From Escherichia phage skuden, in sequence record MN850585.1: a stretch of 64,000 nucleotides of DNA. The stretch is one strand, 5' to 3'. Position 1 is the stretch's first letter, and every line of letters begins with the position of its first letter. This document shows, one piece after another, positions 51,302 to 52,698 of the stretch. The position numbers were made by a program, and so were the translations under genes. Below the pieces are notes generated by a model. The model had not been told where the DNA came from. It ran no database searches and saw nothing but the letters and a program-made list of their open reading frames with translations.

Positions 51302-51380
51302 TGGTACTCCATATCGGATTCGAACCGATACATAACACAGATTTTAAGTCTGGCCTCTCTGCCAATTGGAGTAATGGAGC
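51302..51380 (-). tRNA. tRNA with anticodon UAA (Leu-type) but short variable region
   Basis: Acceptor GCTCCAT/ATGGAGT, A73, T-arm ATCGGTTCGAATCCGAT, anticodon loop CTTAAAA on a 4-bp stem; 79 nt. Confidence 0.45.
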
Positions 51381-51382
51381 AT

Positions 51383-51458
51383 TGGCGGGGGATGTTGGAA
51401 TTGAACCAACTTCTTCGATTTCAAAGACCGAGGTTTTAACCTTGTAAACTAATCCCCT
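51383..51458 (-). tRNA. tRNA-Gln (anticodon UUG)
   Basis: D-arm GTTT/AAAC, anticodon stem-loop TCGGT-CTTTGAA-ATCGA, discriminator G, apparent A1-C72 mismatch. Confidence 0.65.
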
Positions 51459-51466
51459 TTAAATCT

Positions 51467-52024
51467 TTACTTTCTCAGTGGATGAATAAAGAATGCCAAC
51501 ATAACTCTTTCCCTTGAGAATGCTCTTTCTTCTGGGACAACGCTTTTTAGTTTCCATCCAATATAAATTCTCCAGTAAAACTGTTTACCAAAGACTTTAA
51601 TTGATGGGATAAAAGCGAATAATCCCCAAGCATTGCTATTCCACATTAGGAGATAACCAGTCTGATTATCTTCAGGGTCAGAACTTACGTTGATATTGCC
51701 TTTCCACTTAGTAACATCTTTTACATCTCTTCCTAATACATGGTAAGAGAAGTTATAAGCTTTGTTTCTCCAGAGCCATCCAACTCTCTGCATGTAGACA
51801 CCCAGCTTACCAATCTTTCTAATCTTAGCCCATCTTTTAACGTGACCTTCATCACCATCAATTGGGTTGTCATAGGTCTCCATCCATCTGAATCCAAAAG
51901 GTAGGTGTCCTTTCTTCTCACTGTAGAATGGAACTACGAAAGGTGCTAAGATGACTGCTAGGGTTGCTGCAAATGGCTCTAGTAAAGCTAGGAAAATCCA
52001 TGAAGCATACTTCAAATATCTCAT
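51467..52024 (-). CDS. membrane protein of unknown function inside the tRNA cluster
   Basis: 185 aa; N-terminal TM segment WIFLALLEPFAATLAVILAPFVVPF; Trp-rich. Confidence 0.5.
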   Translation of the reverse strand: MRYLKYASWIFLALLEPFAATLAVILAPFVVPFYSEKKGHLPFGFRWMETYDNPIDGDEGHVKRWAKIRKIGKLGVYMQRVGWLWRNKAYNFSYHVLGRDVKDVTKWKGNINVSSDPEDNQTGYLLMWNSNAWGLFAFIPSIKVFGKQFYWRIYIGWKLKSVVPEERAFSRERVMLAFFIHPLRK

Positions 52025-52043
52025 CTAAATAGCCTCTTAAAAT

Positions 52044-52121
52044 TGGTGTTCCAAGACGGATTCGAACCGTCACTAATACAAGGTTTGAGCTTGCATCCTC
52101 TGCCAATTGGGATACTGGAAC
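52044..52121 (-). tRNA. tRNA with anticodon CAA (Leu-type) but short variable region
   Basis: Acceptor GTTCCAG/TTGGAAC, A73, anticodon stem-loop GCAAG-CTCAAAC-CTTGT, T-arm GACGGTTCGAATCCGTC; 78 nt. Confidence 0.45.
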
Positions 52122-52122
52122 A

Positions 52123-52197
52123 TGGTACTCACTAAAGGACTTGAACCTTTTTCTTCATCTTGTAAGGGTGGTGTTTTACCATATAAACTAAGCGAGT
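52123..52197 (-). tRNA. tRNA, probable anticodon UAC (Val), weak anticodon stem
   Basis: Acceptor ACTCGCT/AGTGAGT, T-arm AAAGGTTCAAGTCCTTT, loop CTTACAA with only 3 of 5 stem pairs. Confidence 0.4.
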
Positions 52198-52292
52198 GTG
52201 AAAGAGGTCTGAAGTTGTGCCGCTAACTCAACTCCGTGGAATTTGTTACGGTCTTCAGTTGACACCAGCGGTCTTTCACTTGACCTCTGAAT

Positions 52293-52368
52293 TGGTGCTC
52301 CCACAAGGATTCGAACCCTGATAAGTTGCTTACAAGGCAACCGTAATAGCCTATTATACGATAGGAGC
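52293..52368 (-). tRNA. tRNA-Thr (anticodon UGU)
   Basis: Anticodon stem-loop GTTGC-CTTGTAA-GCAAC, acceptor GCTCCTA/TGGGAGC. Confidence 0.75.
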
Positions 52369-52375
52369 ATTAATT

Positions 52376-52450
52376 TGGAGCATCCAGAGGGAATCGAACC
52401 CTCAACCTCAGTTTGGAAGACTGTAATTTTCCCGTTTAAACTATGGATGC
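52376..52450 (-). tRNA. tRNA-Gly (anticodon UCC)
   Basis: Acceptor GCATCCA/TGGATGC, anticodon loop CTTCCAA, T-arm GAGGGTTCGATTCCCTC. Confidence 0.7.
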
Positions 52451-52456
52451 ACTAAT

Positions 52457-52532
52457 TGGTGGAGTCACTGAGAATTGAACTCAGTTCCCAAGTTTGCAAA
52501 ACTCGAATTTTAACCATATAAACTATGACCCC
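52457..52532 (-). tRNA. tRNA-Ala (anticodon UGC)
   Basis: Anticodon stem-loop CGAGT-TTTGCAA-ACTTG, T-arm CTGAGTTCAATTCTCAG. Confidence 0.7.
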
Positions 52533-52537
52533 ATTTT

Positions 52538-52613
52538 TGGTACAGGTGGAGGGAATTGAACCCATCGTCTTACTGATTAAGAGTCAGCCGCATAACCATT
52601 TTGCTACACCTGC
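52538..52613 (-). tRNA. tRNA-Lys (anticodon CUU)
   Basis: Anticodon stem-loop GCTGA-CTCTTAA-TCAGT; paralogous to the tRNA at 53765. Confidence 0.6.
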
Positions 52614-52620
52614 ATTAATT

Positions 52621-52698
52621 TGGTAGGAGACAAGGGATTCGAACCCTCAAACACCAACTTCTAAGGATGGTAGGTTTACCAATTACCGTCAATCTCCC
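52621..52698 (-). tRNA. tRNA with anticodon UAG (Leu-type) but short variable region
   Basis: Anticodon stem-loop CCATC-CTTAGAA-GTTGG (one mismatch), T-arm GAGGGTTCGAATCCCTT, A73; 78 nt. Confidence 0.4.

Follow-up and report, generated by a model that had tools for sequence, protein, structure and literature searches.

Three of the 25 transfer RNA (tRNA) genes arrayed at 50108–54938 (minus strand) in a 64,000-nucleotide (nt) stretch of DNA from Escherichia phage skuden (MN850585.1; the whole stretch is here called the window) carry leucine anticodons, UAA, CAA, and UAG, on tRNAs of type I, the tRNA-Leu form with a short variable loop, as opposed to class II (or type II) with its long variable arm. 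The three genes are very probably functional and leucine-accepting by way of the leucyl-tRNA synthetase (LeuRS) of the host, as indicated by their structure, identity nucleotides, conservation, and covariation, by the distribution of type I tRNA-Leu in other genomes, and by codon demand. Hundreds of GenBank records already list the window genes as tRNA-Leu, and for the window itself the finding is an ordinary one; the class to which they belong is widespread, known but seldom noted.

Structure and identity elements of the three tRNAs

The original prediction, folded by hand, had placed three tRNAs with these anticodons in the window, and ARAGORN returned them at exactly the same coordinates, all on the minus strand: tRNA-Leu(UAA) at 51302–51380 (79 nt), tRNA-Leu(CAA) at 52044–52121 (78 nt), and tRNA-Leu(UAG) at 52621–52698 (78 nt), each length including an encoded CCA. 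The corresponding matches to Rfam RF00005 scored 47.5, 44.0, and 40.0 bits, above the gathering score of 29 bits. All three ARAGORN cloverleaves have a 7-base pair (bp) acceptor stem, a 3-bp D stem, a T loop of UUCGAAU, and A73 followed by the encoded CCA, in agreement with the good acceptor and T arms, A73, lengths of 78–79 nt, variable regions of 5–7 nt, and lack of a long arm that had been described by hand. At only 75–76 nt without CCA, the genes leave no space for a long variable arm. The stem-less variable region of ~4–8 nt that marks type I occurs in all three, and none has the arm of >10 nt, usually a stem-loop, that marks class II; the A73 and Leu-type D arm of class II tRNA-Leu are present throughout. 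The tools gave leucine anticodons only and no other folds, except that Rfam shifted the register of tRNA-Leu(UAG) by one base, an alignment that was rejected because it leaves no A73-CCA.

In tRNA-Leu(UAA), the acceptor stem (GCUCCAU/AUGGAGU) is followed by U8 A9 and a D stem of CUC/GAG enclosing the D loop CAAUUGGCAGA, with an anticodon loop of CUUAAAA, a 7-nt variable region (GUUAUGU) ending in U48, and A73. The layout of tRNA-Leu(CAA) is the same, with an acceptor stem of GUUCCAG/UUGGAAC, U8 A9, a D stem of UCC/GGA around the D loop CAAUUGGCAGA, an anticodon loop of CUCAAAC, a variable region (AUUAGU) of 5–6 nt ending in U48, and A73. The weakest of the three is tRNA-Leu(UAG), which combines the lowest Rfam score and the off-by-one Rfam register with a U30·U40 mismatch in the anticodon stem (CCAUC/GUUGG) and an irregular D arm (ACGG-U-AAUUGGUAA-ACCU) that has one extra base and an uncertain register, giving either a C11·C24 mismatch or a slipped 3-bp stem. 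Its acceptor stem is GGGAGAU/GUCUCCU, followed by U8 G9, its anticodon loop is CUUAGAA with A37, not G37, its variable region (UGUUU) is 4–5 nt, and A73 is present. The U30·U40 mismatch is common to the window and to T5-like phages, although the adjacent pair 29-41 covaries (A-U vs G-C), which places a conserved mismatch within an otherwise covarying anticodon stem. A37 following G36 likewise occurs in the tRNA-Leu(UAG) of both the window and T5-like phages; host leuW has G37, a site of m1G37.

Segments were compared across ten tRNAs, consisting of the window's three, leuZ(UAA), leuX(CAA), and leuW(UAG) of E. coli K-12, the tRNA-Leu(UAG) of phage T5, and three tRNA-Leu of Aeromonas phage AhP_Mru1. 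The host and T5 tRNAs are 85–87 nt with variable arms of 13–15 nt, and the AhP_Mru1 tRNA-Leu are all 77 nt with 5-nt variable loops. All ten share U8, a 3-bp D stem, an 11-nt loop (N13 A14 A15 Y16 Y17 G18 G19 Y20 A20a R/U21 A22), U48 as the final variable nucleotide, and A73. U8, A14, A15, G18G19, Y20, A20a, U48, A73, and the 3-bp D stem are all present in the window's three, which have the Leu-type core, with an ambiguous D-arm register in tRNA-Leu(UAG), and which also keep the conserved T loop and U33; judging from these nucleotides, the tertiary pairs U8-A14 and A15-U48 would be expected to form. The class II tRNAs of E. coli and T5 have the same D-arm layout and the same U8, A14, A15, G18G19, A20a, U48, and A73, but differ in their arm of 13–15 nt, in their length of 85–87 nt, and, for the host UAG isoacceptor, in G37.

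The identity set of E. coli tRNA-Leu consists of A73, A15-U48, G18G19, A20a, and tertiary contacts between the D and T arms, and both the anticodon and the long arm are dispensable for E. coli LeuRS, with arm-less variants still active (PMC9976931). On the evidence of sequence, this set is kept in full in all three window tRNA-Leu, and these and the class II tRNA-Leu of the host are presumably served by the same synthetase. Engineered arm-less E. coli tRNA-Leu (Asahara 1993/1998; Tocchini-Valentini 2000; Larkin 2002) are, as summarized in PMC9976931, still leucylated if A73 and the D/T contacts are intact; those were laboratory constructs, of which the window tRNAs are natural counterparts. 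Animal mitochondrial tRNA-Leu(UUR) is also of type I, with an identity that rests on A73 and A14 (PMC9976931), though it is unrelated in sequence, has a floppy, reduced structure, and is charged by a dedicated mitochondrial LeuRS. Within the array itself, three ARAGORN calls on the minus strand serve as internal controls, as the long variable arm is retained in tRNA-Ser(GCU) (50188–50280, 93 nt), tRNA-Ser(UGA) (52954–53043, 90 nt), and tRNA-Tyr(GUA) (54352–54439, 88 nt).

The 1.6 kb around the tRNA-Leu genes are 99.8% identical to Escherichia phage warpig and match 309 phage records, nearly all from Felix O1-like myoviruses (Felixounavirus, to which the window belongs, and relatives in the subfamily Ounavirinae) with hosts among Escherichia, Salmonella, Shigella, and Citrobacter. 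Alignment to the tRNAs of related phages, a check proposed with the original prediction, gave near-invariant copies and compensatory changes in the stems. The tRNA-Leu(UAA) gene occurs at ≥99% identity in 215 phage records. The tRNA-Leu(UAG) of the felixounaviruses VSe11 and SUT_S920 differs from that of the window at 8–9 of 78 positions, and all 8 differences in VSe11 fall in the anticodon stem, where CCAUC/GUUGG with its U30·U40 becomes a fully paired UCUCG/CGAGA. Between the window and T5-like UAG genes, acceptor pairs 2-71 and 4-69 and anticodon pair 29-41 are altered on both sides. RNAalifold applied to 13 type I tRNA-Leu (from Felix-like, T5-like, Erwinia, and Aeromonas phages) returned an arm-less cloverleaf in which 18 of 20 pairs have a double change with the pair kept in at least one sequence. 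The stems are kept by compensatory change, and the broken stems, lost conserved nucleotides, and drift typical of pseudogenes were not found, apart from the one U·U mismatch and irregular D arm of tRNA-Leu(UAG).

Demand for these tRNAs was assessed from 56 non-overlapping open reading frames (ORFs) in the window (16,495 codons, 1307 of them leucine codons). TTA (25.2%), TTG (12.5%), and CTA (11.9%) together make up 49.7% of the leucine codons. In E. coli, CUG accounts for about half of leucine codons and CUA for about 4%. UUA, UUG, and CUA are far more used by the AT-rich phage (G+C of ~39%) than by its host. A study of phage Sf14, which carries orthologues of the three genes, rates all three of the phage tRNA-Leu as ‘consistent’ with the codon preference of the phage (PMC12482277).

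Type I tRNA-Leu in phages, viral contigs, and bacteria

The tRNA-Leu(UAG) gene matched 354 phage records, 261 of them at 80–90% identity, and the matches sampled from that range were T5-like phages (e.g., DT57C, FFH1, Gostya9, phiR2-01). The T5-like coliphages (DT57C, OSYSP, phiR2-01, FFH1) resemble the window phage in their hosts (E. coli, Salmonella, Yersinia), though they belong to another phage family (Demerecviridae). Their type I tRNA-Leu are 77 nt with the 5-nt variable loop GUUUU, and their UAG gene, which is 82–85% identical to that of the window, has the T arm, CUUAGAA loop, and U30·U40 in common with it but differs in a regular Leu-type D arm (UG AUG GAAUUGGCAUA CAU A) with no extra base and no 11-24 mismatch. 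The UAG genes of phiR2-01 and OSYSP are identical to each other. In DT57C, the 77-nt type I tRNA-Leu(UAG) lies beside tRNA-Ala(UGC), the place at which T5 has an 85-nt type II gene, so close relatives on one host are served by either form.

More distant phages carry the same form. Erwinia phage vEam_S_24 (Kolesnikvirus, Ounavirinae) has three type I tRNA-Leu (CAA, AAG, UAA) with fully paired stems and sequences far from those of the window, and its tRNA-Ser and tRNA-Tyr are long. A query built from actinobacterial type I sequence found tRNA-Leu in 212 phage records, with hosts that include Streptomyces, Erwinia, Pseudomonas, Mycobacterium, Vibrio, Synechococcus, Bacillus, and Lactobacillus. 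In Salmonella phage FG1m (locus 5999–6076), a chimeric tRNA-Leu takes its 5′ part, through the T loop, from the CAA gene and its 3′ end from the UAA gene, with a partly mismatched acceptor stem and a tRNA-Gln still annotated just downstream; it looks like a recombination deletion across the shared GGTTCGAATCCG, with loss of tRNA-Leu(UAA) and of the ORF with Pfam domain DUF7338. Aeromonas phage AhP_Mru1 also carries two tRNAs (loci 1900–1974 and 2796–2869) with the anticodons CUA and UCA, which would read the stop codons UAG and UGA, annotated as ‘suppressor tRNA’. A literature search for arm-less phage tRNA-Leu found no description for any phage among the papers it covered. The nearest precedents are the type I tRNA-Leu(CAA) of S. 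coelicolor (Fan et al., Nucleic Acids Res 2019, PMC6614811) and a single sentence on a mycobacterial tRNA cluster, in which tRNA-Leu(TAG) ‘has a short variable loop’ (PMC6582537).

Using three scans of sequence collections, it was possible to explore how common the type I form is; the counts given refer to the matches listed and are lower bounds for all three. A first scan of viral contigs in IMG/VR, with a pattern of Leu-type D loop, NAR anticodon, short spacer, and T loop, gave ≥120 loci. Among the listed loci, ARAGORN called 162 tRNA-Leu of ≤79 nt and 47 of ≥81 nt, and tRNA-Ser were long in 95 of 96 cases. Because this sample was biased to AATTGG D loops, as was the bacterial scan, a second, neutral viral scan was keyed on the tRNA-Met anticodon and T arm. 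In the neutral sample, 14 of 49 tRNA-Leu (29%) had a variable region of ≤8 nt, and a long arm was present in the other 35, in all 26 tRNA-Ser, and in 15 of 16 tRNA-Tyr. Short and long tRNA-Leu were alike in A73 (13/14 and 33/35; 61% of other tRNAs), a 3-bp D stem (12/14 and 31/35; 22%), and U48 (13/14 and 34/35; 32%). Variable regions of these viral tRNA-Leu spanned 4–17 nt with a small dip at 9 nt and one outlier of 25 nt, a spread that looks like relaxed constraint on the arm.

Pooling both viral samples gave 175 type I tRNA-Leu (168 unique) from 120 loci, with all six leucine anticodons represented, A73 in 174, and U48 in 172. As a check independent of ARAGORN, pairing was counted at the expected stem positions in 124 unique pattern matches with fixed flanks. 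Stem pairing was 89–98%, compared to 48–73% with partners swapped between sequences, and A73 and U48 were each present in 122 of the 124. Only leucine anticodons occurred, though the pattern permitted Phe(GAA).

The same Leu-type D loop and NAR anticodon pattern was applied to the GTDB species set, in which 119 of the 122 matching tRNAs listed were type I tRNA-Leu. Their anticodons were UAA (n = 76), UAG (n = 18), CAA (n = 12), CAG (n = 7), GAG (n = 5), and AAG (n = 1), and titles were mostly from the Actinomycetota (Nocardia, Mycobacterium, Gordonia, Rhodococcus, Arthrobacter, Bifidobacterium, Rothia). For 87 of the 119, the gene was the sole tRNA in its 8-kb locus, and a minority lay in arrays of 20–26 tRNAs. 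Arrays of 23–26 tRNA genes within 8 kb were seen in Acidobacteriota, Cylindrospermum, Rariloculaceae, and one further contig, each with type I tRNA-Leu. The consensus D arm of the bacterial matches (U8 A9, GCC, CAAUUGGCAGA, GGC) has its counterparts in the window in UA CUC CAAUUGGCAGA GAG (UAA) and UA UCC CAAUUGGCAGA GGA (CAA), and the lone chromosomal genes of actinobacteria are like the window UAA and CAA tRNAs in U8 A9, C13, the D loop CAAUUGGCAGA, A73, and U48. The window genes differ from them in lying in a phage tRNA array, in their encoded CCA, and in an enterobacterial host whose examined tRNA-Leu are all type II; the window tRNA-Leu(UAA) gene had no match in 5,426 complete E. coli genomes. 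The S. coelicolor tRNA-Leu(CAA) likewise has an arm-less cloverleaf with U8-A14, a 3-bp D stem, and an 11-nt D loop, and its variable loop is 5 nt, compared to 7 nt (UAA) and 6 nt (CAA) in the window. It differs in having C48, in a synthetase that ignores A73, and in that E. coli LeuRS failed to charge it (PMC6614811).

These distributions bear on three points of the original prediction. Its premise, that the tRNA-Leu of bacteria and known phages belong to class II, fails, given type I in 14 of the 49 viral tRNA-Leu listed from the neutral sample, and is further contradicted by the T5-like, Erwinia, and Aeromonas phages, by the Actinomycetota, and by the published cases (PMC6614811, PMC6582537). 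As structurally unusual leucine decoders, the three tRNAs are indeed unlike the examined E. coli leuZ, leuX, and leuW, but their form is common in phages and actinobacteria. The D-loop region CCAATTGGCAGAG, noted as shared by the UAA and CAA tRNAs and taken to suggest paralogs, is real but a weak argument for recent paralogy, because type I tRNA-Leu as a family have CAAUUGGCAGA as their consensus; over their full length the two genes share only 75% identity.

Probable charging with leucine and competing explanations

We consider it highly likely that the three genes encode functional type I leucine tRNAs that are charged by the host LeuRS, an enzyme that needs no arm. The three tRNA-Leu would be transcribed within the 25-gene array, processed out, and charged with leucine by the LeuRS of E. 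coli or Salmonella. Recognition by this enzyme depends on A73 and on the fold of the core and of the elbow between the D and T arms (U8-A14, A15-U48, G18G19, and A20a, with a D stem of 3 bp). The anticodon and the long variable arm play no part in it, so that a tRNA-Leu can lose the arm and keep its identity, and the tRNA-Ser and tRNA-Tyr of the array keep theirs because the seryl- and tyrosyl-tRNA synthetases use it. In decoding, the UAA tRNA would read UUA and UUG, the CAA tRNA UUG, and the UAG tRNA CUA (plus wobble). The simplest account of arm loss is relaxed constraint in compact phage arrays, confined to Leu.

Several published results fit charging with leucine. For the Sf14 orthologues, the tRNAscan-SE isotype model for Leu ranked first for all three (67.4, 49.1, and 60.2; PMC12482277). 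A bacteriophage-derived (MF402939.1), anticodon-swapped tRNA-Leu(CGA) reads TCG as leucine in recoded E. coli, according to the text of PMC13596443. MF402939 is the T5-like phage OSYSP, in which ARAGORN found 27 tRNAs across the whole genome and only two tRNA-Leu (UAG and UAA), both of type I, 77 nt long, and with GUUUU as variable loop; the UAG gene is identical to its phiR2-01 homologue and 84% identical to the window tRNA-Leu(UAG). As the OSYSP-derived tRNA inserts leucine and both OSYSP tRNA-Leu are of type I, it would appear that a natural type I tRNA-Leu of a phage is accepted by E. coli LeuRS in living cells, irrespective of the anticodon. Arrays of the kind found in the window also seem to be put to use. 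The Felixounavirus phages REP5-12 are among the phages with an appropriate seryl-tRNA that infect the serine-tRNA-deleted strain Syn61-delta-3 (PMC12269064), and infection by twelve such phages is credited to expression of viral tRNA-Ser(UGA) (PMC13596443). The tRNA-Leu(UAA) of REP6 and REP11 is identical to that of the window, and since viral tRNA-Ser(UGA) enables infection of Syn61-delta-3, the arrays of REP-type phages are expressed and used.

A number of points weigh against charging by LeuRS or against function of the genes. Fan et al. (2019, PMC6614811) saw no charging of the S. coelicolor type I tRNA-Leu(CAA) by E. coli LeuRS, which in their description ‘only charges type II’, and in the crystal its C-terminal domain contacts variable-arm residues 47f–47i (PMC6614811); with that failure on record, charging by the host LeuRS stays an inference. 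The type I form of the OSYSP-derived tRNA is deduced from the gene content of OSYSP, as its exact sequence does not appear in the text of PMC13596443. The isotype call for the Sf14 tRNA-Leu(UAG) is close (Leu 67.4 vs Ile2 65.7; PMC12482277), and the window tRNA-Leu(UAG) has its irregular D arm, U·U mismatch, and A37 where the host has G37. The GenBank record of Yersinia phage phiR2-01 (locus 57–133) labels the T5-like homologue ‘tRNA-Pseudo-TAG’, though annotation pipelines can mislabel arm-less tRNA-Leu as pseudogenes. Single-sequence thermodynamic folding gave no cloverleaf for the UAA or UAG tRNA, with weak z-scores (−1.7, −2.2, −0.78), and the minimum-energy fold of tRNA-Leu(CAA) is near a cloverleaf, in which the acceptor, T, and anticodon helices form and the D stem is absent. 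Such folding is uninformative for AT-rich, unmodified tRNA sequences and was therefore not counted as support.

The failure of E. coli LeuRS on the S. coelicolor tRNA was considered as a decisive bar to charging by the host and was rejected as such. The variable loop of that tRNA, ACAGC, ends in C48, not in the U48 of A15-U48, and A73 is not an identity element in that system (PMC6614811). With C48 and an unused A73, the S. coelicolor tRNA is not a fair analogue of the window tRNAs.

Loss of the arm could also have been adaptive, hiding phage tRNA-Leu from host factors that dock on the class II arm (nucleotidyltransferase toxins of the MenT/AbiEii type, tRNA nucleases), such that leucine decoding by the phage would survive an attack on class II tRNAs. 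This would add a reason to charging by the host LeuRS without replacing it, and we regard it as unlikely. MenT3 anchors on the tRNA-Ser arm and AbiEii seems to prefer class II tRNAs, type I tRNA-Leu are frequent in viral contigs, the Felix-type UAA gene is unmatched in the 5,426 E. coli genomes, and the anticodon loops are also unlike those of the host, a pattern reported for evasion of anticodon nucleases. Against this, there is no known E. coli or Salmonella toxin that reads the variable arm and targets tRNA-Leu, nor any pointer to one in the window, and the viral variable regions of 4–17 nt with their small dip at 9 nt resemble a relaxed constraint more than they do a switch. T5 and DT57C thrive on the same host with either form, and since the Actinomycetota carry type I tRNA-Leu as ordinary lone chromosomal genes, no phage-defence rationale is needed. 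If arm loss were adaptive, E. coli LeuRS would routinely charge natural type I tRNA-Leu during infection, contrary to its description as specific to type II.

It is very improbable that the three genes are decaying, non-functional relics, or tRNA-like elements kept as processing signals or decoys. Their Rfam scores (40–47.5 bits) are below most of the 23 array tRNAs detected by Rfam, with four others in or below that range (33.2–48.0 bits), tRNA-Leu(UAG) has mismatches and an irregular D arm, single-sequence folding is weak, one record bears the ‘tRNA-Pseudo-TAG’ label on a homologue, and Salmonella phage FG1m is viable with a Leu(CAA)/Leu(UAA) chimera. Relics would not be expected to stay near-invariant in hundreds of isolates whose surrounding 1.6 kb differ by ~3%, nor to have compensatory replacements in their stems. 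A73, U48, and the Leu-type D arm are kept across the 168 unique viral type I tRNA-Leu among the matches listed, the class persists across Ounavirinae genera including the Erwinia phages, and a type I phage tRNA-Leu (the OSYSP-derived tRNA, as described in the text of PMC13596443) works in E. coli.

Charging with an amino acid other than leucine, which the original prediction had left room for and which would give UUA, UUG, and CUA another meaning in phage genes, scarcely deserves credence even though LeuRS normally meets class II tRNAs in this host and the isotype scores of the Sf14 tRNA-Leu(UAG) are close (Leu 67.4, Ile2 65.7, Lys 63.4): one in two leucine codons of the window ORFs, and about 4% of their codons overall, is UUA, UUG, or CUA, so frequent that recoding would change nearly every protein, and the window proteins have ordinary homologues, with Pfam and PHROG profiles that match end to end under the standard code. 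The tRNAs have no G3·U70, hence no Ala identity, and no long arm, hence no Ser identity, their anticodons are unfit for the isoleucyl-, methionyl-, valyl-, and phenylalanyl-tRNA synthetases by established identity rules (PMC9976931), and the full Leu identity set is present; the Leu isotype ranks first for the Sf14 tRNAs and the OSYSP-derived tRNA inserts leucine.

The surrounding array and the wider meaning

ARAGORN called 25 tRNA genes in the array and Rfam matched 23; the tRNA-Tyr (54352–54439) and a second tRNA-Met (54609–54685) are ARAGORN calls under the Rfam gathering score. Genes are separated by as little as 1–8 nt in places, and nearly all encode CCA. A scan of the array for promoters and terminators found 14 promoter-like sites compared to 11.4 expected, no excess over chance. 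The tRNA content is not constant within the genus, as at 53044–54350 the window has tRNA-Arg(UCU), Asp, Tyr, and Asn where warpig has an HNH endonuclease gene and fewer tRNAs. This difference between the two arrays indicates turnover of tRNA content within the genus, with homing endonucleases possibly the route.

Protein-coding genes on the minus strand lie in and beside the array. A 316-amino acid (aa) ORF (50282–51232), the longest at that position, overlaps tRNA-Phe (51033–51107), tRNA-His (51114–51189), and the 3′ end of tRNA-Gln (51221–51296), and the same long form is annotated in warpig as a ‘putative membrane protein’. As its matches to Pfam DUF7217 and phrog_2114 start only at residue 79–80, translation probably begins downstream of tRNA-Phe, as for the 244-aa form in phage FG1m. 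A 185-aa ORF of unknown function (51467–52024; DUF7338, phrog_2143) sits inside the array, between tRNA-Gln(UUG) and tRNA-Leu(CAA), and is labelled ‘holin’ in some records and ‘hypothetical protein’ in others. Directly upstream of the array, a 471-aa protein (55104–56519) matches DUF2828, DUF7788, and phrog_850 (‘RNA-binding protein’) and is annotated as ‘vWFA protein’ in warpig; this vWA-type RNA-binding protein might be akin to Ro/TROVE proteins.

In textbooks and in recent primary papers, class II is taken to be the form of bacterial tRNA-Leu, and a single LeuRS serving both forms has been called rare (PMC6614811). Arm-less tRNA-Leu are instead routine in phages, at roughly a quarter to a third of viral tRNA-Leu among the matches listed from a small neutral sample, and routine even in phages of enterobacteria, in whose own tRNA-Leu, among those examined, the arm is always present. 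Only Leu loses it, in keeping with what the synthetases need, as E. coli LeuRS is reported to charge without the arm and the Ser and Tyr synthetases use it. This specific loss amounts to a natural experiment that agrees with decades of identity-element biochemistry, and it supplies natural substrates for the study of E. coli LeuRS on type I tRNAs. For annotators it is a warning that arm-less tRNA-Leu genes are not pseudogenes, and on the practical side such phage tRNA-Leu already serve in building ‘swapped’ genetic codes.

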